Assembly: GCA_964571545.1 (NCBI GenBank)
Contig: CAZNCK010000001.1
Coordinates: 8,944 to 65,784, forward strand
Length of the DNA stretch: 56,841 nt
DNA from: an uncultured Treponemataceae bacterium
Lineage (GTDB): Bacteria > Spirochaetota > Spirochaetia > Treponematales > UBA12059
Direction of reading: 5' to 3'
Of this stretch, positions 2,434-55,669 are shown piece by piece. The notes beneath the pieces were generated by a model, which worked only from the letters and a program-made list of their open reading frames with translations, was not told the origin of the DNA and ran no database searches. Each line of letters opens with the position of its first letter. Positions within the stretch are counted from its first letter, which is position 1. The position numbers and the translations under genes are program-made.

Positions 2434-3504
2434 ATGTCGTTTTCTAGCATTGAAACCGTATCGTTCCGTAATCTTGCGGACGGGGCTGTCCATACAGACG
2501 CCTCGTCCGTTTTCGTCGTCGGGGATAATGGGCAGGGTAAGACAAACTTTCTAGATGCCGTCTATACGCTCTGCTACGGCTCCTCTTTCAGGGATTCACA
2601 GGATGCTGATGCGGCACGGCTGGGCGGCCAGGTCTGGTCTGTCCGAGGTACCAATCCCGACGGTTCAGGTTGCCGTGTTTCATGGAACTCCGGCCAGAAA
2701 TCGATACGCGAGGATGACAAGCCGATTCACGATCGCAAACGGCTGGTGGAACGCAATCCGGCCATAGTGTTCTGCCACGACGACATGGAATTCGCTCGAG
2801 GCGAACCCGAACGTAGGCGTTTTTTCTTCGACCAAACCGCCAGTCTTGTCTCCATAGGCTACATAGACCTTCTCCGCGCGTATCGCAGGGCGCTCAAAGC
2901 CAGAAACGTCGCCCTTAAGGAACGCAGCCTAGACGTGCTGGACGTGCTGGATATTCAGGTTGCTACGTACGGCCTTGGGCTACGCGACGAACGCGCCAGG
3001 CTAGCAGTGGAGTTCGACGAACGCTTTGCGCCGCGTTACGAGCTGGTTTCCAGGCTCGGAAGCCGGGTGGGCGTGGCATACCGGCCTTCCTGGAAGCTCG
3101 ACGATTCTGTGGATACCGTCGTCTCCAGGCTGGGCCAGGGCCGCGAGCGGGAGCTTGCACTGGGCACAAGCCTGTCGGGTCCGCACCGGGACCGCTTCAT
3201 ATTCACTGACGAGCGAGGGGACTTCTCGGACCGGGCTTCTACCGGACAGCTCAGACTTCTTAGCCTGACCCTGCGCATTGCACAGGCTGAGCACTATGCA
3301 GTCGTTTCCGGCAGACCTCCGGTACTGTTGCTTGACGACGTGCTCCTGGAACTTGATCCTGAAAAGCGGCGTCGGTTCATGGAGAACCTGCCAGAGGCCG
3401 ACCAGACTTTTTTTACCTTCCTGCCTGGCGAACCATACCGGGATTACACGCAGAGCGACACTATCGTATACTGGACGGACGATGGACGATTCTCGCGTAC
3501 GTAA
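2434..3504 (+). CDS. recF: DNA replication/repair protein RecF
   Basis: Walker A GDNGQGKTNFLDA, SMC-type signature STGQLRLLSLTLRIAQ, Walker B PVLLLDDVLLELD. Located after dnaN. Confidence 0.93.
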   Translation: MSFSSIETVSFRNLADGAVHTDASSVFVVGDNGQGKTNFLDAVYTLCYGSSFRDSQDADAARLGGQVWSVRGTNPDGSGCRVSWNSGQKSIREDDKPIHDRKRLVERNPAIVFCHDDMEFARGEPERRRFFFDQTASLVSIGYIDLLRAYRRALKARNVALKERSLDVLDVLDIQVATYGLGLRDERARLAVEFDERFAPRYELVSRLGSRVGVAYRPSWKLDDSVDTVVSRLGQGRERELALGTSLSGPHRDRFIFTDERGDFSDRASTGQLRLLSLTLRIAQAEHYAVVSGRPPVLLLDDVLLELDPEKRRRFMENLPEADQTFFTFLPGEPYRDYTQSDTIVYWTDDGRFSRT

Positions 3505-4081
3505 GGCCTCCGACCTTCTCGGCTCTCTCCTGTCTCCCAAAGCCGCGGCCCAGGCAGATGGCTGGTCGCGTTTCTTTGGCTTTTGGACCAAAGCCGCCGG
3601 CGAGAACCTTGCCGCCCACTCGCGGCCTGTCGACGTGCGCAACGGCATCGTCTACGTGGAGACCACGCATCCCGGCTGGATCCAGTTGCTCCAGATGGAA
3701 CAGAACCGCATCCTGGATACGATACGGCGCACCTTCCCCGAACTCGGCATCTCGGGCATCGCGTTCAGGCTCGCCAGGGACGGCTCCCTGCCCGGCACCG
3801 TTCGCATCACCCGAGCCAGCAGCCCTGAAACAGCAGATGCCGGGGGTCTGTCCCCGGAAGGGCAGGCCGACGGCATCTGCCTCGGGGATCAGACGCGGGC
3901 TGGAAGCGGCATGAAGCCCGAGAAGATGCCGTCGGTAGCGCAGACAATACGGGGCGTCACCGACGATTCGTTCCGAAGCATACTCTCGTCGCTGGCGAGC
4001 ACCCTAAACGAGGCCAACCGGGAAGCCGGCGTCAAGGCCAGAGCCACGACGGCCGAAGACGGGCACAACGGCGGGGTCTGA
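3482..4081 (+). CDS. DUF721 (DciA-like) protein
   Basis: Start MDDSRVRKASDLLGSLL overlaps the recF stop. Core W..AAGENLAAHSRPVDVRNGIVYVETTHPGWIQLLQMEQNRILDTI matches the DUF721 pattern commonly found after recF. Low-complexity C-terminal tail. Confidence 0.7.
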   Translation: MDDSRVRKASDLLGSLLSPKAAAQADGWSRFFGFWTKAAGENLAAHSRPVDVRNGIVYVETTHPGWIQLLQMEQNRILDTIRRTFPELGISGIAFRLARDGSLPGTVRITRASSPETADAGGLSPEGQADGICLGDQTRAGSGMKPEKMPSVAQTIRGVTDDSFRSILSSLASTLNEANREAGVKARATTAEDGHNGGV

Positions 4082-4168
4082 CCCCTTGTGGTCCGATGAG
4101 GGGAACTGCATGGATTTGTGCTTGATTTTTATAGCTCTACCCCGTATCGTGACGGACTTACGAAGCTT

Positions 4169-4507
4169 ATGAACCAAGTGATCAACATAGACGTGTACGG
4201 CAAGGCCGAAGACCAGATCTGCGCCGGTTGCGAGCATTCGTGCGGCGACTGCAAACCAGGAACCAAACGGCGGACCATAGAGCTGGTCGACGAGTTCAGG
4301 ACGCTCCTCGCAGCCTCGGATATCGGGGCATGCTACTCGGTAACATTCTACGAATCAACGCCCCAGAACATCGCCAGGAACTACGACGTTCAGAAGTTGC
4401 TGTCGATGGCGAGCCTCGAACCAGTCGTCTGCCTGGGCGGCAAGGTTACCTATCTCGGCGGCTTCAGCCCCGAGGGCCTCCTCTCGGAATTACGCAAGAA
4501 ACAGTAA
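4169..4507 (+). CDS. Small Cys-rich thioredoxin-fold-like protein (YuzD/DUF1462-like?)
   Basis: MNQVINIDVYGKAEDQICAGCEHSCGDC... has the layout of YuzD-type putative disulfide oxidoreductases (I.VYGAE.iCAsC). The assignment is by eye only. Confidence 0.4.
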   Translation: MNQVINIDVYGKAEDQICAGCEHSCGDCKPGTKRRTIELVDEFRTLLAASDIGACYSVTFYESTPQNIARNYDVQKLLSMASLEPVVCLGGKVTYLGGFSPEGLLSELRKKQ

Positions 4508-4517
4508 GGGTGCAAAC

Positions 4518-6917
4518 ATGGAATTGAACGACGAATTCATAGCCGGACTCGAAGTAGTCAAGACCGATCTCCTGAACCGCATAGCCGCTCAGCTTACGAT
4601 ACGCGCCAGCCAGGCCGCAGCTGTCGTCGAACTGACGGCAGAAGGTAGCACGGTGCCGTTCATCAGCCGTTACCGCAAGGAGCGCACAGGAGAACTCGAT
4701 GAAGTCCAGGTTCGTGACGTGGTCCACCTGCACCAGAGCATGACCAATCTGGAGACCCGTCGCATAGAGGTGATCCAGGCTATTTACGGCCAGGGCAAGC
4801 TCTCCGAGGAGCTGTACGGGAATATCCGCAAGTGTGCCACTCTCACCGAGATCGAGGACATTTACGCGCCGTATAAACGCAAGAAGAAGACCCGAGGTAT
4901 GGTCGCCATAGAGAAGGGACTCGAGCCGCTTGCGGAGCTGATGTTGAAGAAGAATGCCGCGGCCGTTCTCGCCGCGGCTACCGGATTCATCAGGGAGGAC
5001 GCCGAGCATCCGGAGCTCTCCGTAGCCTGCGCCGAGGACGCCATTAAGGGCGCCGTGGACATCATTGCCGAGCGGGTGTCCCAGGACCCCGAGAACCGCG
5101 TTGCGGTCAAGAAACTATACCTGCGCGATGGCTTCATGACCGTCAAGGGCTTGGGCGACGAGAAGAAGAAGGAATCAAGCACCTATCAGATGTACTGGGA
5201 CTACCGCGAGCCCCTGGGGTCTCTCAAGCCCCATCGCGTGTTGGCGATCAACCGCGGCGAGCGCGAAGGTGAGCTGGAAGTGGGCTTGGAAGTCGACGAG
5301 GATGCTGCGGTCAAACGCCTTCAGGAGCGCTACGAGCTTGCTAACGAATACCATGCCGACGCGGTGGACGAGGCGTTACGTCGGCTTGTATCGCCCGCCG
5401 TACTCCGCGAGATACGCTCCGAGGCTCTGGACCAGGCTGACGGCCACGGCATTGCGGTGTTCAGCGAGAATCTGAAAAACCTGCTTCTGTCGGCCCCGAT
5501 CAAGGGCACACGCGTGCTAGGCGTCGATCCGGGGATACGTACCGGCACCAAGTGCGCCGCCATAGATGAGACGGGTAAGTTCCTGGGGTACTTCGTGGTG
5601 TACCAGGAGCAGAAGCCCGACGAGGCGCGCAAGGCCATTGCCAAGGCCATCAAGGACTATGCCATCCAACTGGTCGCGGTGGGCAACGGCACCGGTAGCC
5701 ATGACGTGCAGAAGATAGTTTCCGAGGCCCTCGTTGAACTCGGTGGGGAGTCCAAGTACGCCGTCGTGGACGAGGACGGCGCGTCCGTATATTCCGCCAG
5801 CGACATAGCGCGCGAAGAATTTCCCGAGCTTGATCTGACGATACGAGGCGCCATTTCCATAGGCAGGCGCATCCAGGACCCGCTCGCCGAGCTGGTCAAG
5901 ATCGACCCCAAGAGCATAGGCGTTGGCCTGTACCAGCACGACGTCAACCAGAAGAGACTTTCCGAGACAGTCGACGAGGTGGTGGAGTCGGTGGTCAACC
6001 GGGTGGGCGTCAACATCAACACGGCCAGCCACATGCTCCTTAAGTACGTCTCCGGCATCAATTCTTCGCTGGCCAAGAAAATAGTCAAGTTTCGCGACGA
6101 GAACGGCAAGATCACGAGCCGTGACCAGCTCAAGGCCGTATCCGGCATGGGTGAGAAGAGCTATGAACAATGTGCTGGCTTTCTCAAGATACCCGGCAGT
6201 GCCAACCCTCTAGACAACACCTGGGTGCATCCTGAGCACTACGAGTTGGCAAGCGAGATCCTGGAAGGCGTCCGCGCAGGAAAGGATCCGTCCAGGGAGC
6301 AACGCGCCGGTCTCAAGGAGAAGTATGCTGTCGGCGACACGACTATCGACGACATCATCGCGGAGCTCAAGAAACCAAACCGCGACCCGCGCGACGATTA
6401 TCCCAAGCCCCTGCTCCAGCAGGGCGTTCTGGCCTTCGACGACCTCAAGGAAGGCATGAAGGTCACCGGCAAGGTCAAGAACGTCGTAGACTTCGGCGCC
6501 TTCGTCGACATCGGCATCAAGGAGAGCGCCCTCATCCACGTCTCCGAGCTCTCCGACCAGTTCGTCAAGGACCCGATGGACGTGCTCAAGGTGGGCGACG
6601 TCAAGGAATTCAGGATCATTTCCCTCGATCTGGCGCGCAGGCGCATAGGTCTGTCCCTGAAGAGCGAACGCAGGCCTGACGGCCAGGGCACGCCGCGTCC
6701 TGAAGGCTCCCAGACAAATTCGTCTTCAGGCGCGCGCCGCGTCGTCGTCGCACGCAAGCCCGAGGGACAGACCCTGGGGTCGGCCGCAAACCCGGCGAGA
6801 TCAGTCGAGGGACAGACCCCGAGGTCGCCGCGGTCGGGCGTCAAGTCTGTTTCGGAGCGCGACGATGACGGGTCTAGCTACAATCCTTTTGCCGAGCTGC
6901 TCAAGAATCGGAAATAG
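4518..6917 (+). CDS. tex: Tex-like transcription accessory protein (YqgF/HhH/S1 domains)
   Basis: 799 aa. N-terminal ASQAAAVVELTAEGSTVPFISRYRKERTG, YqgF-like VLGVDPGIRTGTK, C-terminal S1 domain GKVKNVVDFGAFVDIG...HVSEL. Low-complexity tail containing two motif copies. Confidence 0.92.
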   Translation: MELNDEFIAGLEVVKTDLLNRIAAQLTIRASQAAAVVELTAEGSTVPFISRYRKERTGELDEVQVRDVVHLHQSMTNLETRRIEVIQAIYGQGKLSEELYGNIRKCATLTEIEDIYAPYKRKKKTRGMVAIEKGLEPLAELMLKKNAAAVLAAATGFIREDAEHPELSVACAEDAIKGAVDIIAERVSQDPENRVAVKKLYLRDGFMTVKGLGDEKKKESSTYQMYWDYREPLGSLKPHRVLAINRGEREGELEVGLEVDEDAAVKRLQERYELANEYHADAVDEALRRLVSPAVLREIRSEALDQADGHGIAVFSENLKNLLLSAPIKGTRVLGVDPGIRTGTKCAAIDETGKFLGYFVVYQEQKPDEARKAIAKAIKDYAIQLVAVGNGTGSHDVQKIVSEALVELGGESKYAVVDEDGASVYSASDIAREEFPELDLTIRGAISIGRRIQDPLAELVKIDPKSIGVGLYQHDVNQKRLSETVDEVVESVVNRVGVNINTASHMLLKYVSGINSSLAKKIVKFRDENGKITSRDQLKAVSGMGEKSYEQCAGFLKIPGSANPLDNTWVHPEHYELASEILEGVRAGKDPSREQRAGLKEKYAVGDTTIDDIIAELKKPNRDPRDDYPKPLLQQGVLAFDDLKEGMKVTGKVKNVVDFGAFVDIGIKESALIHVSELSDQFVKDPMDVLKVGDVKEFRIISLDLARRRIGLSLKSERRPDGQGTPRPEGSQTNSSSGARRVVVARKPEGQTLGSAANPARSVEGQTPRSPRSGVKSVSERDDDGSSYNPFAELLKNRK

Positions 6918-48108: not shown

Positions 48109-49302
48109 TTGATGGATTCCATACTTTCACTTATCGGCCGCAGTACCCCCCTTCTAGCTCAGGATCTCGCTACCAATTCCAGTATACTTGGAGATATCGT
48201 CTCTGCTTCCCGCTTCCTCGTCATCGGCGGCGCCGGATCCATCGGCCAGGCTGTAACCCGCGAGATATTCAAGCGCAATCCTCGCCTTCTCCATGTCGTC
48301 GATATATCAGAGAACAACACGGTGGAACTGGTGCGCGATCTGCGCAGTTCCATAGGCTATTCAGATGGCGAGTTTGCCACCTTCGCGATAGACGCGGGCA
48401 GCGACATCTTCGATGCCTTCATGGAACATGGCCCCGGGTACGACTATGTGCTCAACCTCTCGGCGCTCAAGCACGTGCGCAGCGAGAGGGACCCGTACAC
48501 GCTGATGCGCATGATCGATGTCAATGTATTCAACACTGATAAAACCATGCGGCAGGCCAAGTCCAAGGGAGCAAAGAAGTATTTCTGCGTGTCCACTGAC
48601 AAGGCCGCCAACCCCGTCAACATGATGGGGGCCAGCAAACGCATCATGGAGATGTTCCTGATGCGCCGCAGCCTTGAAATGCCCGTTTCCACCGCCCGCT
48701 TTGCCAACGTGGCCTTCTCAGACGGCAGCCTCCTCTATGGCTTCAACCGCCGCATGGAGAAGGACCAACCGCTCGCCGCGCCTAACGACGTGCGCCGCTA
48801 CTTCGTTACCCCCCAGGAATCAGGTGAACTGTGCCTCTGCTCCTGCCTCCTGGGCGACAACAGGGATGTCTTCTTTCCCAAGCTCGACCAGGGCCTGAAC
48901 CTCATCACCTTCAGCCAGATAGCGGAACGCTACCTGGAACGCGCGGGCTACGAATCCGTCCACTGCGCCAGCGAGGACGAGGCCCGCGCCCGCGTGGCCG
49001 AACTCAAGCCCCAGCGCAAGTGGCCCGTATACTTCTTCAGTAGCGACACCACCGGAGAGAAGGACTTTGAGGAGTTCTACACAGACAACGAGACCCTGGA
49101 TATGGCCCGCTTCAAGAACCTCGGCATAATCAAGAACCAACCGGATTACGACGAGGCCAAGCTGGCCCATTTTGAGTCACGCATCAAAGAGCTGCGCGCC
49201 CGGGGCACCTGGAGCCGCACCGACCTCATAGACCTCTTCAACACCATGATTCCCGAGTTTAACCACAAGGAAACAGGCAAGTTTCTGGACGGAAGGATGT
49301 AG
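48109..49302 (+). CDS. CapD/PglF/WbpM-family NDP-sugar 4,6-dehydratase (soluble form), full-length copy
   Basis: RFLVIGGAGSIGQAVTREI...LHVVDISENN...LSALKHVRSE...FCVSTDKAANPVNMMGASKRIME...ARFANVAFSDGS. 397 aa. Confidence 0.88.
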   Translation: MMDSILSLIGRSTPLLAQDLATNSSILGDIVSASRFLVIGGAGSIGQAVTREIFKRNPRLLHVVDISENNTVELVRDLRSSIGYSDGEFATFAIDAGSDIFDAFMEHGPGYDYVLNLSALKHVRSERDPYTLMRMIDVNVFNTDKTMRQAKSKGAKKYFCVSTDKAANPVNMMGASKRIMEMFLMRRSLEMPVSTARFANVAFSDGSLLYGFNRRMEKDQPLAAPNDVRRYFVTPQESGELCLCSCLLGDNRDVFFPKLDQGLNLITFSQIAERYLERAGYESVHCASEDEARARVAELKPQRKWPVYFFSSDTTGEKDFEEFYTDNETLDMARFKNLGIIKNQPDYDEAKLAHFESRIKELRARGTWSRTDLIDLFNTMIPEFNHKETGKFLDGRM

Positions 49303-49368
49303 CGACTTAACACTACTTTCACGGAAATCCAAGTTGTAAGAGCAGATAATCTGTAGTATTGTTGGTTT

Positions 49369-50097
49369 ATGAGCAATTCTCTGCCAGTTTCTATAAGCCC
49401 GTGTCCTATTCAGGAAGCTGTCGTTGAAATCAGATTTTCTACAGCCATACCTCCAGATGCGGTTTTTGGAATTTTGTACGCAAAAGTAAAACAGAAATTT
49501 AACACAACAAATGCCCTGCCTATTCTACAGATTCCAGAGGCTATACGCTCCCAGGACCCAAATCTGACGTATCAACCTCATTATATGCTGAGCAATGGCA
49601 ATCTCAACCTGAAAATTGGCCCGAAAGTTCTTGGATTCAGCTGTGTAGCCCCGTATGTAGGATGGGAGCACTATTTTTCTTTTGTCAAAGAAATTATTGA
49701 AGCAACCAGGGATACTGGAGTAATGGAAAGGCCAGAACGGCTTGGTCTACGGTACATCAATTATTTCCCCATGCCGGTTCTCGATGTTCTTGACCTTGGC
49801 ATACAATTCGGGGCAATGCAGGTATCTCAAGAGCCAACCTATCTCCGTACTGAGTTCAAGCATGACGATTTTGATAAAATCGTAAGCATTACCAACAATA
49901 TGTCCATAACATTGCCTGGTAAAACCGAGCTTGGGTCACTACTTGACATAGACTGCGTGCATACGTTCTCTCAGGACGCTGGTAGTTTTTACACTACGCA
50001 TGATCATATCATCAACCAGGGCCACGAAATAGAGAAGCAAACTTTTTTTAAGATGCTTAAACCGGATTTTTTGGCAACACTGGATCCAAAATATTGA
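49369..50097 (+). CDS. Uncharacterised protein, TIGR04255-like
   Basis: N-terminal PIQEAVVEIRF and central RLGLRYINYF match my recollection of the TIGR04255 family pattern. 242 aa, AT-rich cassette. Confidence 0.55.
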   Translation: MSNSLPVSISPCPIQEAVVEIRFSTAIPPDAVFGILYAKVKQKFNTTNALPILQIPEAIRSQDPNLTYQPHYMLSNGNLNLKIGPKVLGFSCVAPYVGWEHYFSFVKEIIEATRDTGVMERPERLGLRYINYFPMPVLDVLDLGIQFGAMQVSQEPTYLRTEFKHDDFDKIVSITNNMSITLPGKTELGSLLDIDCVHTFSQDAGSFYTTHDHIINQGHEIEKQTFFKMLKPDFLATLDPKY

Positions 50098-50106
50098 GGT
50101 AAAACC

Positions 50107-50421
50107 ATGTATGAAACAAATTCAACCATCAAAATTAATTCTGTGATGGCGACAGCGAGTGCGGTTGCCATGACCCTTGCCGTCATGGGAAGTTTTCCTG
50201 CTCTGCCCCGGAGGGAGTATTGTTTGCCAAAAATTGAAGCGGTCTTGTCCAGAGATTTGGTACGAACATTGGAAACAATGAATATAGCCTGTGTTGTACA
50301 AACTCCTCAGGAAAAGATGGATGTAATTAGTAGATTCGTCGGGATCATGGTATCAGAATCCAGAGATCTTGAACCAGAAGTGAGGTCTATAGTCCAAAGC
50401 AACTTCTGGGATCTTATCTGA
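50107..50421 (+). CDS. Hypothetical small protein (hydrophobic N-terminal segment)
   Basis: 104 aa, starts 10 nt after the upstream gene stop. MATASAVAMTLAVMGSFPALP hydrophobic stretch. No recognisable motif. Confidence 0.45.
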   Translation: MYETNSTIKINSVMATASAVAMTLAVMGSFPALPRREYCLPKIEAVLSRDLVRTLETMNIACVVQTPQEKMDVISRFVGIMVSESRDLEPEVRSIVQSNFWDLI

Positions 50422-50423
50422 AA

Positions 50424-51041
50424 ATGTCGGAATTTGAAAATTTCTCGCTGTTTTTACCCAGATATCTGAGTCCAGATACAGAGAATACATTGTTGGCTGA
50501 CCTCAAAGACTTTCCCGGCAATATTGATAAGAGAATGTATGGTTTTTATGGCAAATCAGACACCGTAATCTATCAGGGAGATGGACTGAAAGGATTGCCC
50601 TATATCAACTTTCCGGAGCCAAGAATAGAGTCCTTGTCTTGTCTGGTACTCTCCAATACTTGCGATGTAGACCCCTCAAATCAGCGAAAATTCGGCTCCT
50701 CCATCGTATATTCACCTGTGATTGCACTGGAAAAATATGAGAAACTCCTATTAGATAAAGGAATATTTTCTTCAGTTGCTCTGCAGGCACACGTGGGCGC
50801 CATACGAAGACAGGAAATTACCCAGATATTTTATTTACCTTCTTACTCTACTGATCTACCAGAGTCGATAGTTTTTCTTGATCGTCTCTGTCATTGTGAT
50901 TCAACCTTCGTCCTTCGCGATGAATTATCCACCAGGCGGTTGTTTTCCTTGTCTCAATATGGATTGTACCTGTTTCTCTATAAACTTTCGATACACTTCA
51001 CCCGGTTCCATGAAAAAATCGACAGAACGTATAGACAATAA
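50424..51041 (+). CDS. Hypothetical protein (205 aa), third gene of the cassette
   Basis: Starts 3 nt after the previous stop. No recognisable catalytic motif. Conserved-looking block YQGDGLKGLPYINFPEP...LVLSNTCDVDP. Confidence 0.5.
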   Translation: MSEFENFSLFLPRYLSPDTENTLLADLKDFPGNIDKRMYGFYGKSDTVIYQGDGLKGLPYINFPEPRIESLSCLVLSNTCDVDPSNQRKFGSSIVYSPVIALEKYEKLLLDKGIFSSVALQAHVGAIRRQEITQIFYLPSYSTDLPESIVFLDRLCHCDSTFVLRDELSTRRLFSLSQYGLYLFLYKLSIHFTRFHEKIDRTYRQ

Positions 51042-51076
51042 CTGTCGAGAATTACCAGAAGAGGGTAACAATTTTT

Positions 51077-51125
51077 CGCGTGAGGGAGCGTAGAGCCCGC
51101 CCCGACCGCAGGTCGGGGCACGCCC
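51077..51125 (+). repeat. Structured repeat family, copy 2 (short form)
   Basis: CGCGTGAGGGAGCGTAGAGCCCG-CCCCGACC-GCA-GGTCGGGG-CACGCCC, with a perfect 8-bp stem. Confidence 0.75.
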
Positions 51126-51143
51126 ATTACTGAACAGTGTAAC

Positions 51144-51671
51144 GTCTTCAACACTGACGTGCGCCGCTACTTCGTTACCCCCCAGGAATCAGGTGAACTG
51201 TGCCTCTGCTCCTGCCTCCTGGGCGACAACAGGGATGTCTTCTTTCCCAAGCTCGACCAGGGCCTGAACCTCATCACCTTCAGCCAGATAGCGGAACGCT
51301 ACCTGGAACGCGCGGGCTACGAATCCGTCCACTGCGCCAGCGAGGACGAGGCCCGCGCCCGCGTGGCCGAACTCAAGCCCCAGCGCAAGTGGCCCGTATA
51401 CTTCTTCAGTAGCGACACCACCGGAGAGAAGGACTTTGAGGAGTTCTACACAGACAACGAGACCCTGGATATGGCCCGCTTCAAGAACCTCGGCATAATC
51501 AAGAACGAACCAGACTACGACCAGGCCAAGCTGGCCCATTTCGAGTCCCGTATCCGGCAGCTGCGCGCCCAGGGTACCTGGAGCCGCACCGACCTCATAG
51601 ACCTGTTCAACACCATGATCCCCGAGTTTAACCACAAGGAAACAGGCAAGTTTTTGGACGGGAGGATGTAG
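51144..51671 (+). pseudogene. CapD-like gene fragment R1 (C-terminal ~170 codons, 5'-truncated, internal deletion)
   Basis: ORF 51159-51671 is identical at the protein level to 48790-49128 of the full gene, then diverges (EPDYDQ...RIRQLRAQ versus QPDYDE...RIKELRAR). The junction GTCTTCAACACTGAC|GTGCGCCGC fuses two distant parts of the gene. Confidence 0.9.
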
Positions 51672-51813
51672 CAGGCCTATTCATCCGCTTATTCAGCAGA
51701 ATATGCGCTAAACTATTCCTGTCTTCCAGTTTTGCGTATATTTTATGTAGTTTAATGTCCATAAACTACGCGGTACATGGTTTGGTGGATGGAAACACTA
51801 CAAGGAGCTCATT

Positions 51814-52020
51814 ATGGTGGCAGTAGAATTTGAAGCCAATGTTGAAGGTGGGATGATAAAAATCCCTCGAAAATATACTCAACTCGAGAACAAACACATG
51901 AAGGTACTTCTATTCGAGACTGGTGCACACAACCAACCCTTGCCTGAATCTTTTTTTGAACCAATCATCATCTCTTCATACAGCCTGATTGCTACACGGG
52001 ATGAAATCTATGAACGGTGA
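51814..52020 (+). CDS. AbrB/SpoVT-like antitoxin (VapB-type)
   Basis: 68 aa, GGMIKIPRKY...ATRDEIYER*. The stop overlaps the PIN gene ATG. Confidence 0.6.
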   Translation: MVAVEFEANVEGGMIKIPRKYTQLENKHMKVLLFETGAHNQPLPESFFEPIIISSYSLIATRDEIYER

Positions 52021-52452
52021 TGTCTTTGTAGACACGAATATATTCCTGTATGCACTGACGATACCAGATTCTCCTCTTCTTCGGATCTTGAAAAGCATGA
52101 AAAAGCACAGGAATTCTTCAAGACTACAATTTTGGATGCTGAATCCCTTGTAACATCCGTCCAGATAATAAATGAAGTTCACTTCAACTTGATAAGGAAA
52201 TTTCATATTGGCGACCCAGTAGCCTTTGAATTGGTAAAGACGAGGATTGTCAGCAATTTTGAAGTACTCCCGGTCAGTATTTCCGCATGGTACAAATCGA
52301 TTGAGCTTCGTTCCAGATACAGCCTGTCATATTGGGATTCGATCATGGTTTCATCCGCTATTGAAAGAAGTTGTTCATTTCTGGTGACCGAAGACTTGCA
52401 GGATGGACTTGTCATAAACAAAGAGTTGCGCATATTAAACCCGCTTACCTGA
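52010..52452 (+). pseudogene. PIN-domain (VapC) toxin gene with an apparent frameshift
   Basis: N-terminus MNGDVFVDTNIFLYAL is in the frame of 52010 (stops at 52153). The rest (EKAQEFFKTTILDAESLVTSVQIINEV...YWDSIMVSSAIE...LVTEDLQDG) is in a different frame, open from 52021. The shift lies within ~52060-52100. Confidence 0.7.
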
Positions 52453-52465
52453 GTTGTATGCATTC

Positions 52466-52551
52466 CGCGTGAGGGATCGTAGCGTAAAGCCCGCAGCGCA
52501 GCGAGGACTTGAAGCGAAGAGCCCGACCCGACCGCAGGTCGGGGCACGCCC
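52466..52551 (+). repeat. Structured repeat family, copy 3 (long form)
   Basis: CGCGTGAGGGATCGTAGCGTAAAGCCCGCAGCGCAGCGAGGACTTGAAGCGAAGAGCCCGA-CCCGACC-GCA-GGTCGGG-GCACGCCC. Confidence 0.75.
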
Positions 52552-52562
52552 TAATCCGCCTA

Positions 52563-53046
52563 CGACTGCGTGTCTACTGACAAGGCCGCCAACCCCGTCA
52601 ACATGATGGGGGCCAGCAAACGCATCATGGAGATGTTCCTGATGCGCCGCAGCCTTGAAATGCCCGTTTCCACCGCCCGCTTTGCCAACGTGGCCTTCTC
52701 AGACGGCAGCCTCCTCTATGGCTTTAACCGCCGCATGGAGAAGGACCAACCGCTCGCCGCGCCTAATGACGTGCGCCGCTACTTCGTTACCCCCCAGGAA
52801 TCAGGCGAACTGTGCCTCTGCTCCTGCCTCCTGGGCAACAACCGTGACGTCTTCTTTCCCAAGCTCGGCATAACCAAGAACGAACCAGACTACGATCAGG
52901 CCAAGCTGGCCCATATCGAGTCCCGTATCCGGCAACTGCGCGCGCGCGGCACCTGGAGCCGCACCGACCTCATAGACCTGTTCAACACCATGATCCCTGA
53001 GTTTAACCACAGGGAAACCGGCAAGTTTTTGGATGGGAGGATGTGA
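52563..53046 (+). pseudogene. CapD-like gene fragment R2 (158 codons, 5'-truncated, in-frame internal deletion)
   Basis: STDKAANPVNMMGASKRIME...RDVFFPKL|GITKNEPDYDQ...GKFLDGRM. About 83 codons are missing relative to the full copy, at a CTCG microhomology. Confidence 0.9.
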
Positions 53047-53080
53047 TCATGGTAAGAAAGCACGATCCTGAAGAATTATT

Positions 53081-53404
53081 ATGAGCAAAATACTTATAGA
53101 TGTTCTTCGGTTAATTCAACTCAACGAGCTTAGAATTTCCGATCACGGATATGATGAGCTTGCTGAAGATGGTATTTTCGTAAAAGATATACTTGTATCC
53201 ATTGCGGATGCTATAGTTGTTGAGGAATACCCGGAGTACCCTAAAGGGCCGTGTGTACTTGTCCTGCAGAAGGTTAGAAATGGCGATTCAATCCACGCCG
53301 TATGGGGTATCCCTAAAGGAATGTCTTCACCGGCCGTTCTGATTACTGCGTATAGACCGGATCCATCGCGGTGGGAAGACGGTTTTATGAGGAGAAAGAA
53401 ATGA
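53081..53404 (+). CDS. DUF4258-like toxin
   Basis: ISDHGYDELAEDGIFVKDILVSIADAIVVEEYPEYPKGPCVLVL...IHAVWG fits the DUF4258 pattern. ATGA overlap with the next gene. Confidence 0.55.
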   Translation: MSKILIDVLRLIQLNELRISDHGYDELAEDGIFVKDILVSIADAIVVEEYPEYPKGPCVLVLQKVRNGDSIHAVWGIPKGMSSPAVLITAYRPDPSRWEDGFMRRKK

Positions 53405-53616
53405 ACACCAGGAACTTCACAAAGATGATCCATGAAGGTGATTTTGTAGCAGAAGTTGATGTTGCTTTGATCTATACGGAAGAAGGATGGGCTCCATACC
53501 TTTCATTACAGGATGCGTACAAACTCGATGATGTTCGAGAAGCACTGAGACAGGGCGACATAAAGGCTGCAACACAACTCTCTCGAGTATACACCTTGAC
53601 CAGAATTGCTGGTTAA
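53401..53616 (+). CDS. Putative cognate antitoxin (71 aa)
   Basis: Translationally coupled to the DUF4258-like gene. No motif recognised. Confidence 0.4.
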   Translation: MNTRNFTKMIHEGDFVAEVDVALIYTEEGWAPYLSLQDAYKLDDVREALRQGDIKAATQLSRVYTLTRIAG

Positions 53617-53621
53617 AGAAG

Positions 53622-53675
53622 ATCCCCGAGTTCAACTACAAGAAAACAGGAAAGTTTTTGGACGGGAGAATGTAG
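53622..53675 (+). repeat. CapD 3'-end remnant R3
   Basis: ATCCCCGAGTTCAACTACAAGAAAACAGGAAAGTTTTTGGACGGGAGAATGTAG (IPEFNYKKTGKFLDGRM*). Confidence 0.85.
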
Positions 53676-53782
53676 CAGGCCATATGCTTTACCAACTTTG
53701 TCAAGCTCATAGACAAACTAAATCATTGTGAATATAGTAATACTAACACCCTACTGAGTAGGGTGATGCTACTGGAGTATAT

Positions 53783-54121
53783 ATGAAACGTCTTTTCATT
53801 CAAACCAATGAGTTCCAAGCATGTTGGAAAGAACTTGGGATGACTGAAGACGATTTACGGCAATTTCAGGAACATCTTCTGGAGTGTCCAGAGGCTGGGC
53901 CTGTTATTCAGGGTACTGGCGGTGTTAGAAAAGTGCGGTGGGCACGCCAGGGGAAAGGAAAGTCAGGTGGTCTCCGTATTATTTATATTGACATCCGCAA
54001 TCGGGAGACGATCTGGCTAATTACAGCATTTGGCAAAAACGAACAAGATAGCTTGAGTTCTGCAGAGAAAAAACATATTAAGGAGTTTGTTAAATCCTTG
54101 TATGGTGAGGAGGAGCAATGA
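53783..54121 (+). CDS. RelE/HigB-type toxin (DUF1044-like)
   Basis: GTGGVRKVRWARQGKGKSGGLRIIYIDIRNRETIWLITAFGKNEQDSL is the typical toxin pattern. Toxin precedes antitoxin (HigBA order). Confidence 0.65.
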   Translation: MKRLFIQTNEFQACWKELGMTEDDLRQFQEHLLECPEAGPVIQGTGGVRKVRWARQGKGKSGGLRIIYIDIRNRETIWLITAFGKNEQDSLSSAEKKHIKEFVKSLYGEEEQ

Positions 54122-54435
54122 GTAAAGCGTATGCAAGTATCATGAAAGGGCTTGTAGAAATAAAAGCCCACAATGAGGGGAAACTGCAACTGAAGACTTC
54201 AACCCTGGAAATAAAACCCCCACCGAGATGTGACGATACTGTTGTCAAGAACCTTCGTGCGGATCTTAGGCTTTCACAATCGGCTTTTGCCACGGTTATG
54301 GGAGTTTCCAAAAAAACCGTGGAAGCATGGGAATCGGCTCGAAACGTACCCAGTGGTAGTTCCTGCCGCCTTATCGAGGTCATCAGCAAAGATACATCCA
54401 TACTGGAACGGGAAAACATAGTAATTTCGTCGTGA
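54118..54435 (+). CDS. XRE-family HTH antitoxin (HigA/MqsA-like)
   Basis: VKNLRADLRLSQSAFATVMGVSKKTVEAWESARNVPSGSSCRLI is an XRE HTH. 4-nt overlap with the toxin. Confidence 0.7.
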   Translation: MSKAYASIMKGLVEIKAHNEGKLQLKTSTLEIKPPPRCDDTVVKNLRADLRLSQSAFATVMGVSKKTVEAWESARNVPSGSSCRLIEVISKDTSILERENIVISS

Positions 54436-54450
54436 TATCGATCCAAGACC

Positions 54451-54506
54451 CCCCGAATCAAGCCACAAGCAAGGAAACGGGCAAGTTTCTGGACGGGAGG
54501 ATGTAG
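54451..54506 (+). repeat. CapD 3'-end remnant R4
   Basis: CCCCGAATCAAGCCACAAGCAAGGAAACGGGCAAGTTTCTGGACGGGAGGATGTAG. Confidence 0.8.
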
Positions 54507-54636
54507 CAGTCCTTCGAGAGCAAGACCCATGGTTTGAGTGGTGTTGTACAAGAGCAAGATTTATGGTTTCTGCTGTGCCAAGCTTTACATGTAGAATCAA
54601 GATGAGGAAACGAAATACTATTTTAAAGGTTTTAGC

Positions 54637-54714
54637 ATGAATTTTGAATGGGATCCGGCAAAAGCTGAAATAAATCGGTCTAAACACGATGTCAGCTTTG
54701 AAGACGGGAGATAG
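54637..54714 (+). pseudogene. BrnT (DUF497) toxin remnant, 25 codons
   Basis: MNFEWDPAKAEINRSKHDVSFEDGR* is the canonical BrnT N-terminus but truncated (family members are ~90 aa). Confidence 0.65.
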
Positions 54715-54718
54715 TGTT

Positions 54719-54931
54719 ATGAGTGATATGCTGGATGAATATGACTTTTCCAAGGCTGAACGCGGCAAGTTCTACATTCCACAAGAAGAAATACGATTGC
54801 CTCACTATTTGCCGCCATCTCTGGAGCAGAAGTTGGCATTGCTGTCCAAAACGAGCGGGAAAAGCCGTGATGCCTTGATCAATATGGTTCTTGAGAATGA
54901 ATTGGACCTTCTTCTGACGGTAGCAAACTAA
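54719..54931 (+). CDS. BrnA-like (RHH/CopG) antitoxin, now orphan
   Basis: MSDMLDEYDFSKAERGKFY...LEQKLALLSKTSGKSRDALINMVLE is a BrnA-like N-terminus with a C-terminal RHH-like segment. Confidence 0.55.
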   Translation: MSDMLDEYDFSKAERGKFYIPQEEIRLPHYLPPSLEQKLALLSKTSGKSRDALINMVLENELDLLLTVAN

Positions 54932-55001
54932 CCTGTTCAACACCATGATCCCCGGGTTCAACCACAAGTACACAGGCAAGTTTTTAGACGGGAGAATGTA
55001 A
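54932..55001 (+). repeat. CapD 3'-end remnant R5, abutting the phosphoglycosyl transferase start
   Basis: CCTGTTCAACACCATGATCCCCGGGTTCAACCACAAGTACACAGGCAAGTTTTTAGACGGGAGAATGTAA. Its TAA overlaps the ATG at 55001 (TAATG). Confidence 0.85.
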
Positions 55002-55669
55002 TGATGACCAGACTGTTCGATATCCTGTTCTCGCTTATGGCGATGGTACTGCTTCTGCCCTTCATGCTGCCCGTCATGATAGCCCTCAAGCTTTCAGGCG
55101 AGCACTACATCTTCTACCGCCAAAGCCGGGTCGGCATCCATGGCCGGGACTTTGACCTCTTCAAATTCGCCACCATGCTCCTGGATTCACCCAACCTGCC
55201 TGGTGGACTATATACAGACAAGAACGACCCCCGCATGCTGCCCATGGGCCGCTTCCTCCGCAAGACAAAGATCAACGAGCTACCCCAGCTTATCAACATC
55301 TTTGTGGGGCAGATGAGCATCGTCGGCTTTCGCCCCACCGTTCGCCAGCACTTTGAAGGCTATCCGGCCTACGCCAAGGAAAAGCTCTACAACGCCGCCC
55401 CAGGCCTCACCGGCATCGGCTCCGTAGTATTCAGGAACGAAGAAGAAATCCTGCAGAACTTTGCGGATAAAAAGGCCTTCCACCAGAACGTCATAGCGCC
55501 CTACAAGGCCGCCCTGGAATGCTGGTATGTGGACCACGCGGGGCTGTTCAACTACTTCAAACTCATACTGCTGACCGTCGTCTCGGTCCTGAACCCTGCT
55601 TCCTCAGCCTGGAAGACCTGGTTCAAGGATTTGCCCCCTGTACCCCCGGAACTGGAGCCGTACATCTAG
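55001..55669 (+). CDS. Small monotopic phosphoglycosyl transferase (PglC/WbaP C-terminal domain family), initiating enzyme
   Basis: RLFDILFSLMAMVLLLPFMLPVMIALKL...YRQSRVG..G..F.LFKFATM...DPRMLPMGRFLRKTKINELPQLINIFVGQMSIVGFRP. Confidence 0.9.
   Translation: MMTRLFDILFSLMAMVLLLPFMLPVMIALKLSGEHYIFYRQSRVGIHGRDFDLFKFATMLLDSPNLPGGLYTDKNDPRMLPMGRFLRKTKINELPQLINIFVGQMSIVGFRPTVRQHFEGYPAYAKEKLYNAAPGLTGIGSVVFRNEEEILQNFADKKAFHQNVIAPYKAALECWYVDHAGLFNYFKLILLTVVSVLNPASSAWKTWFKDLPPVPPELEPYI

Follow-up and report, generated by a model that had tools for sequence, protein, structure and literature searches.

Toxin-antitoxin (TA) systems of the tripartite kind include TAC with its SecB-like chaperone, HipBST, MqsRAC, omega-epsilon-zeta, and PaaR-PaaA-ParE. 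Of the type III TA systems, ToxIN and AbiQ act by abortive infection. The MazF fold in divergent form occurs in defense outside classical TA modules as well, as in GajC of type II Gabija, which is required in validated defense, has a predicted MazF-like domain split by a helical insertion, and has been proposed to be a nuclease effector (PMC13069673). A defense system made of 3 proteins of unknown function is Rst_3HP ("hp + hp + hp") of Escherichia coli P2-like phages, whose members of 333, 359, and 227 aa (Table S2A, PMC9122126) are encoded at the portal-proximal hotspot and were validated against phage P1 (PMC9122126). Here we describe a cassette of 3 genes from a stretch of 56,841 nt belonging to an uncultured Treponemataceae bacterium (assembly GCA_964571545.1, contig CAZNCK010000001.1, positions 8,944 to 65,784), and this whole stretch is called the window. 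The products are P1, P2, and P3 in gene order, not to be confused with phage P1 or with the P2-like phages, and the set is called the triad. Our general model is that the triad is, on balance, probably a conflict system based on a toxin, in which P3 is the effector, and the roles proposed for the individual proteins are rated lower than that.

A sequence-only reading of the window had nominated the cassette as a TA, abortive-infection, or other conflict system. That candidacy is now supported by the co-conservation of the 3 genes, the lack of a metabolic match, the mobility of the set, and its phage context. In a scan that took one genome for each species, 189 relatives turned up among about 185,579 (~0.1 %), and 80 loci were fetched. 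By a profile search of all open reading frames (ORFs), the order p1-p2-p3 is kept in every assessable locus, about 80 at the species level, which is the co-conserved triad that the reading had proposed to look for. The loci that seem incomplete are 3 contigs cut at an end and 2 in which a P2-like ORF falls below threshold, the latter ORFs ending in ...PWDFV and ...HFWDLV. The distribution takes in at least 10 phyla, including Spirochaetota, Bacteroidota, Ignavibacteriota, Acidobacteriota, Planctomycetota, Verrucomicrobiota, and Desulfobacterota, and extends to Gammaproteobacteria, Chlorobiota, Fibrobacterota, Lentisphaerota, Cloacimonadota, and others. TIGR04255 homologs at 34-37 % identity, for example in Pseudanabaena, are also found within a triad, and the same goes for other genomes and for metagenome contigs.

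Across 79 loci the median gap between P1 and P2 is 2 nt, and 58 of the 79 have a 4-nt overlap between the P2 stop and the P3 start. There is no fourth conserved gene, the commonest flanking family being found in 4 of the 79 loci. The triad is a self-contained 3-gene operon, strictly co-inherited, and the 3 ORFs are not there by chance, because each has hundreds of homologs under clear constraint. The flanks of the loci are unrelated to each other, and this together with the patchy distribution means that the triad moves horizontally. Of the 7 IMG/VR contigs that have a P1 relative, 5 carry the full triad.

P3 is the candidate effector. Its homologs number 274 by word-indexed search and 993 representative clusters by an exhaustive HMMER scan, and nearly all the full-length homologs among the matches listed are single-domain proteins of about 200 aa. 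Longer homologs were considered as domain fusions that might serve as Rosetta-stone evidence, and were rejected as miscalled starts or read-through. The alignment (A1) has about 31 invariant positions, among them Q51 G52 D53, S77 N78 C80 D81, N86, H123, Q130, D153 R154, K187 S189 H191 R194 and R201, with the motifs QGD, SNxCD, FxDR, and KxSxH. Because these positions are mostly polar or charged, the set suggests that P3 is an enzyme. The AlphaFold2 (AF2) model, confident by its predicted local distance difference test (pLDDT) score of 82.3 and its predicted template modeling (pTM) score of 0.78, has a MazF/Kid/PemK-like barrel as its predicted core, to which N- and C-terminal helices and a 2-helix insertion are added. 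Foldseek against the PDB returns MazF, Kid, MoxT, or YdcE for all of the top 30 matches (probability 1.0, E about 1.5e-3, TMt 0.63-0.72), with the type III toxin CptN (4rmo) lower among the matches, and against the BFVD viral structure library PemK-like proteins are at the top. P3 belongs to phrog_4575.

At the level of sequence the picture is different. A profile search of PDB sequences with P3 came back empty, and the sole segment that hhalign pairs is MazF "RPVLVIQND..N" with P3 "LVLSNTCD..N", where there is no conserved Arg. Sequence homology of P3 to MazF/PemK was rejected on the negative Pfam, PDB profile, and hhalign results, and the claim is kept at the level of fold, namely that P3 is predicted to have a MazF-like fold while standing outside the PemK/MazF family.

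P1 was called TIGR04255-like by the sequence-only reading, and NCBIfam bears this out with 127.2 bits and E = 9e-37 over model positions 3-251 of 252, the curated cut-off being 30 bits. It also belongs to phrog_5464. There are 18 invariant and 16 near-invariant positions, including R124-x-G-x-R-Y, D193-x-D195, and H219...K223, and the invariant residues include R60, W99, R124, G126, R128, Y129, D193, D195, H219, and K223. The AF2 model, of very high confidence (pLDDT 95.4, pTM 0.91), is a duplicated alpha/beta pseudo-dimer that is loosely like the TATA-binding protein (TBP) and AdoMetDC. These 2 proteins are the best Foldseek matches in the PDB, at TM 0.24-0.31 and a root-mean-square deviation above 10 Å, and on those values transfer of function was rejected and only the fold class retained. 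The profile search of PDB sequences gave non-significant matches to an aminoglycoside acetyltransferase and to the hnRNP H qRRM. Apart from the NCBIfam match of P1, none of the 3 proteins has a counterpart in Pfam, PADLOC, or the PDB sequences.

What the conservation of P1 might mean is that the roles are reversed, with P1 as the enzyme or effector and P3 as a non-nuclease binder of MazF/CcdB fold, a CcdB-like poison or a nucleic-acid sensor. Many of the invariant positions of P1 are charged, and the CcdB/MazF fold is also found in non-nuclease toxins. A distant TIGR04255-like protein (E = 1.5e-19 to the P1 profile) is encoded in Campylobacter phage vB_CJ12660_3PH123 (PP935708; locus L098, 3384-4967), downstream of a gene for a DNA/RNA non-specific endonuclease and followed by 2 overlapping genes, for 187 and 127 aa, unrelated to P2 or P3. 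TIGR04255 proteins may thus pair with other partners, which would make P1 the constant core. However, this lone case is a low-complexity AT-rich sequence, P1 resembles no known enzyme or toxin, and P3 has enzyme-like invariants of its own and is at least as conserved as P1, the identities across the same loci being 45-54 % for P3, 37-44 % for P1, and 20-25 % for P2. We regard the reversal of roles as unlikely.

Beyond cellular genomes, tblastn found the triad in temperate Pseudomonas phages, and on re-analysis all 3 genes are present. Phage VW-6S (MF975720; locus L096, 2909-3971) carries the triad flanked by the cI repressor and integrase genes, and the P2-like phage Dobby (MK034952; locus L097, 1090-2176) has it in the interval from the integrase to the portal gene, with a DNA-methyltransferase module alongside. 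The deposited annotations obscure this somewhat: P1 of Dobby is started at the internal position 1483 instead of 1090, and in place of P2, VW-6S has a 46-aa "XerC integrase" fragment where the real P2-like ORF has 105 aa and runs 3654-3971. P2-like phages of E. coli have an anti-phage hotspot at the cos-proximal locus that adjoins the portal gene gpQ (Rousset et al., PMC9122126), and by analogy of position the Dobby site would correspond to it.

Neighbors of the triad elsewhere include an AbiEi/AbiEii module (in 2 loci of a related metagenomic lineage, L002 and L003), an MmeI-type restriction-modification (RM) gene, a phage integrase, and smpB. Many of the other neighbors are housekeeping genes, with type I and II RM, HicB, RhuM, and PDC-S01 genes interspersed. 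Strong defense-island enrichment was looked for and not found, the neighborhood being a housekeeping mix with some RM, TA, and PDC-S01 genes. As to enrichment in defense islands or prophages, which the sequence-only reading had proposed to examine, the temperate-phage accessory slots and the AbiE, RM, and integrase neighbors are there, but the enrichment in defense islands is only modest because so many neighbors are housekeeping genes.

The same contexts raise the question of whether the triad is a selfish TA module, one that stabilizes the DNA carrying it, here the array next to capD described below, by pure addiction and without phage defense. The triad has TA-like features, it shares the array with classical TA modules, and it is inserted in many unrelated and often housekeeping contexts. 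Still, plasmids are where addiction modules thrive, and there the triad is nearly absent, being found in 1 of 72,556 plasmid records. The phage accessory slots, one of them matching the defense hotspot of E. coli P2-like phages by position, and a conserved third component of 242 aa, which would be superfluous for simple addiction, also speak against it, and we consider pure addiction rather improbable.

The P2 family, as seen in 82 homologs, is about 104 aa in length and acidic, with a median isoelectric point of 4.4, and it is the fastest evolving of the three. The hydrophobic N-terminal segment noticed in the sequence-only reading is conserved across the 82 homologs, and its hydrophobicity is moderate, the median of the maximum 19-residue Kyte-Doolittle score being 1.45 with 29 % of the homologs reaching 1.6. 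At the other end there is a conserved C-terminal motif, D.D.E...VN.NFWDLI. No match to P2 was found in the family libraries, in PDB sequences, or in PHROG. In organization P2 is a small acidic protein encoded directly upstream of P3 and translationally coupled to it by the 4-nt overlap.

A variant gives an indication of how P2 and P3 may be related to each other. In locus L103 (IMGVR_UViG_3300033169_000264, 3382-5023) and in L104, 2 ORFs come after a close P1 (E about 1e-80). The first, of 97 aa, has a P2-like N-terminal hydrophobic helix and an unrelated C-terminus. The second, of 185 aa, barely matches the P3 profile (E = 6.5e-5) and keeps EQGDIV and ILSQSCDI. Joint divergence of the P2 C-terminus and P3 beside a constant P1 would be expected of proteins that bind each other, and is seen here in a single case. 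The variant also indicates a wider QGD/S(N/Q)xCD superfamily that has no Pfam or PADLOC match.

Where P2 resides is of interest, since its hydrophobic N-terminus, slightly positive before the core and negative after it, might make the triad an envelope module that serves the prophage. P2 would then be exported or anchored and would change the surface or block DNA entry as in superinfection exclusion, with P1 and P3 being cytoplasmic and non-toxic. By eye, the phage versions of P2 resemble signal peptides (VW-6S ...SMSAIA/DT; Dobby ...AIQQA/TPP), temperate phages have the triad in lysogenic-conversion slots, and its surroundings in the window are a surface-polysaccharide gene cluster. Against this, the hydrophobicity of P2 is marginal by the values given above, and P1 and P3, which make up most of the conserved mass, have no export signals. 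In addition, the MazF-like predicted fold and dense invariant polar residues of P3 suggest a cytoplasmic enzyme, and most host loci belong neither to a prophage nor to a surface-polysaccharide locus. The envelope module is, in our estimation, improbable.

For the toxin-based conflict system, the proposed mechanism is as follows. P3 would be the toxic effector, most likely an endoribonuclease, having a MazF/Kid-fold core and a catalytic constellation of its own that would be made up of QGD, SNxCD, and the His, Lys, and Arg of the C-terminal helix. Translational coupling would provide P2 in fixed stoichiometry with P3, and P2 would restrain or tether P3, in one version as an antitoxin-like partner in the cytoplasm and in the other as an adaptor anchored in the membrane. 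P1, the most constrained partner, would be the sensor or regulator that decides on the release of P3. We infer the toxicity and RNase activity of P3, the roles of P1 and P2, and a phage trigger. The benefit would most likely be exclusion of phages or abortive infection, or else addiction of the carrying element. A bolder version of the model has a widespread 3-component abortive-infection system, used also by temperate phages as a weapon against competitors, in which P1, with a duplicated alpha/beta fold that would be new, would sense infection, a possibly membrane-tethered P2 would gate the system, and a MazF-fold P3 nuclease unrelated in sequence to PemK/MazF would kill by way of the new QGD/SNxCD motif. 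That version is tentative, and we hold it to be possible rather than probable.

A number of findings weigh against the toxin-based conflict system. The toxin assignment rests on a predicted fold with a TM of 0.4 when query-normalized, and the catalytic Arg and Thr of MazF cannot be mapped on P3. Pfam, including PemK/MazF PF02452, gives nothing for P3 even at E ≤ 1, and hhalign of P3 against 5 MazF/Kid sequences gives a probability of 0.7 %. P2 has no recognizable DNA-binding domain, and its net charge of +0.5 before the hydrophobic core and −1.1 after it would also fit an exported or membrane-anchored protein rather than a simple cytoplasmic antitoxin. For P1, the predicted fold offers no functional clue, and no paper in the literature searched mentions TIGR04255, phrog_5464, phrog_4575, or the phage protein accessions. 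PADLOC-DB v2.0.0 has no match at E ≤ 1 for the window triad or for Dobby P1 and P3. Lastly, the neighbors of the triad are often housekeeping genes and not defense islands, and the scarcity on plasmids counts here too. Of the profile and structure searches that the sequence-only reading had recommended, the structure search gave P3 a predicted MazF/Kid-like fold, the profile search placed P1 in TIGR04255, and the profile searches with P2 gave no match.

At the window itself, the features of the cassette are collected in Table 1. The 3 packed ORFs on one strand are as they had been claimed, with the peptides quoted for them present and with gaps of 9 nt between P1 and P2 and 2 nt between P2 and P3 in the ORF list. 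The cassette was also correctly said to be AT-rich: its GC content is 41.9 %, compared with 57.4 % for the capD-like gene, 59 % for the downstream capD fragments, and 51.4 % for the whole window. The composition of the triad is foreign to the host. The boundaries hold up as well, with the capD-like stop on the left and the hairpin repeat followed by a capD 3'-end copy on the right.

Table 1. Coordinates of the triad cassette and its boundaries in the window
Feature	Position	Strand	Description
Left boundary: last 55 nt and stop codon of the live capD-like gene	49248..49308	+	Copy 1 of the 61-nt R1 repeat
AT-rich leader, 60 nt, from capD stop to P1 start	49309..49368	+	Sequence read
P1 ORF	49369-50097	+	242 aa; TIGR04255-family
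P2 ORF	50107-50421	+	104 aa; hydrophobic N-terminal segment
P3 ORF	50424-51041	+	205 aa; predicted MazF-like core
Cassette 3' end: structured repeat, extended GC-rich hairpin	51042..51155	+	Hairpin core 51087-51125; repeat D6
Right boundary: 516-nt copy of the capD 3' end	51156-51671	+	Repeats D1 and D2; binned identity

The stop codon of the capD-like gene is at 49300-49302, and the gene matches Polysacc_synt_2 with E = 5e-39. In the leader, a promoter scan found no convincing sigma-70 promoter, so expression of the triad may rely on read-through from capD or on a non-consensus promoter. At the 3' end of the cassette, the terminator scan of the structured repeat was negative. The hairpin has no T-tract and is therefore not a canonical intrinsic terminator. 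A second copy of the hairpin is at 52513-52551, and an exact 20-mer of the repeat has 2 occurrences compared with 0 expected. The hairpin (…GAGCCCGNCCCGACCGCAGGTCGGGGCACGCCC) ends slots 1 and 2 of the array and also the AbiE cassette of a related array (L002 about 2036-2076), and blastn gives 95 % identity with L002/L003. It always abuts a capD fragment, and the truncation point of the fragment differs every time. In Rfam the sole match is a sub-threshold Flavo-1 on the slot-2 hairpin (52462-52532, 29.4 bits against a gathering score of 42, E = 0.006).

The 516-nt copy at the right boundary corresponds to live capD 48787-49302, and is 100 % identical to it over the first 350 nt (48787-49136) and 84-96 % identical over the last 166 nt. 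The identity of gene and fragment ends sharply to the left of 48787. This mosaic pattern suggests a recent recombination or gene conversion associated with the triad's arrival beside capD.

The cassette is one of 5 in an array spanning 48109-55669, between the live capD-like gene and a Bac_transf (sugar-transferase) gene. All 5 are AT-rich (42-44 % GC), and behind each comes a copy of the capD 3' end; in order, the copies measure 516 nt, about 480 nt, and 3 times 61 nt. The 61-nt R1 repeat (family D4) has 6 copies, with one after every array cassette, and the last capD 3'-end copy overlaps the start of the sugar-transferase gene. The sequence-only reading had the other slots filled by TA modules, and they do contain a PIN module, a DUF4258 module, and a RelE-like/helix-turn-helix (HTH) module, together with an 80-aa orphan ORF. 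Close to capD the copies are long and hardly differ from the live gene, and farther away they are short and diverged, so it is suggested that new cassettes enter next to capD, with an integron-like polarity of insertion. When the array is compared with an integron, whose cassettes have an attC site at the 3' end and adjoin an IntI integrase gene, slots 1 and 2 end in the hairpin, and slots 3-5 have just the 61-nt capD repeat without a hairpin copy. The genes adjoining the array are capD and an epimerase, and there is no integrase beside the array nor among the top Pfam families listed for the window. A literature search found no description of a cassette array made with capD repeats. If an array built on repeats of a gene 3' end reflects a distinct mechanism of cassette capture, it would matter in its own right.

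An equivalent array is found in the related metagenomic lineage represented by L002 and L003, where the triad, at 75 % DNA identity, occupies the second slot. Ahead of it, the slot next to capD holds the AbiEi/AbiEii module (L002 304-1966, L003 286-1948). Arrays of close relatives differ in cassette content and order, and its position there shows the triad to be a cassette that can change slots rather than one bound to slot 1.

The location in the window between capD and the sugar-transferase gene, inside the polysaccharide cluster, would suit an ordinary housekeeping or polysaccharide operon that lies downstream of capD by chance, and among the upstream neighbors in other loci 3 of 138 are Polysacc_synt_2 or epimerase genes. 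However, these 3 cases come from close relatives of the same array, which accounts for them. At other loci the flanks are unrelated, the triad occurs in so small a share of species and in phages, its composition is foreign, and none of the 3 window proteins matches a characterized metabolic family, which had been named in the sequence-only reading as another point to check. The distribution effectively refutes such an operon, and we give it hardly any credence.

Some other contents of the window and its scaffold, which derives from a groundwater metagenome (SRR1658462, PRJNA268031), are worth recording. Past the window end on the same scaffold (L099 8126-8975), a Polbeta (MNT-like)/HepT-like pair is downstream of Bac_transf, so TA-type modules continue beyond the repeat-bounded array. 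The window opens within dnaA, of which it has the 3' part, and continues with dnaN and yidC-type genes, which puts the array within about 50 kb of the likely replication origin. Positions 1-47000 further hold genes of the Rnf complex, Tex, CorA, and a long surface-polysaccharide cluster, in which there is a second and stronger Polysacc_synt_2 gene (E = 2.5e-105). Two window ORFs match AAA_21, for which the Pfam description is putative AbiEii toxin.

If the conflict-system model is true, it would give a first functional context to the orphan families TIGR04255, phrog_5464, and phrog_4575, of which TIGR04255 is a label in NCBI genome annotations with no function behind it. It would add a compact defense or TA system, of about 1.7 kb, that is invisible to PADLOC and Pfam and ranges from Bacteroidota to cyanobacteria to Pseudomonas phages. 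The effector would bring a new sequence family, with an active site of a different kind, into the MazF/Kid fold. The copy in Pseudomonas aeruginosa phage Dobby makes the hypothesis testable in a tractable host.

To place the triad among described systems, the nearest by predicted fold is MazEF/Kis-Kid (PemIK). The predicted core of P3 superposes on MazF, Kid, MoxT, and YdcE, a small acidic protein is encoded immediately upstream with translational coupling, and the distribution is mobile and patchy. Unlike those toxins, P3 has no sequence similarity to the family, is nearly twice the size, and has extra helices and its own QGD/SNxCD. Likewise P2 lacks an AbrB, ribbon-helix-helix (RHH), or MazE-like DNA-binding domain and has a hydrophobic N-terminus, and the triad has an obligate third gene, for TIGR04255. 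The type III toxins ToxN, AbiQ, and CptN have in common with P3 a MazF-related fold, as predicted for P3, and CptN is among its structural matches, but there is no sequence match and the partners in the triad are proteins. A ToxIN-like type III system was rejected, as Tandem Repeats Finder finds no repeat in 49000-51300 at a minimum score of 30.

GajC of Gabija is likened to P3 by predicted fold only, each having a predicted MazF-like domain interrupted by helices. The two differ in that GajC acts together with the helicase GajB, and the triad has no helicase linked to it. Rst_3HP is similar in comprising 3 proteins without known function at a portal-proximal site in P2-like phages. Identity with it was rejected, the scores of hp1-3 against the triad profiles being at most 3.6 bits (hmmsearch --max). 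Membership of P1 in TIGR04255 and phrog_5464 and of P3 in phrog_4575 is clear, although these are labels of uncharacterized families only. With the tripartite TA systems the triad shares the logic of 3 genes in one operon, which here would be for a toxin, a neutralizer, and a third component in control. The protein families of those systems are all absent from it, and its third component is a TIGR04255 protein, not a chaperone, a kinase fragment, or an HTH/RHH repressor. The triad is most like a tripartite TA or abortive-infection system with a toxin of the MazF type, as predicted by fold, familiar in its logic and built from new parts.

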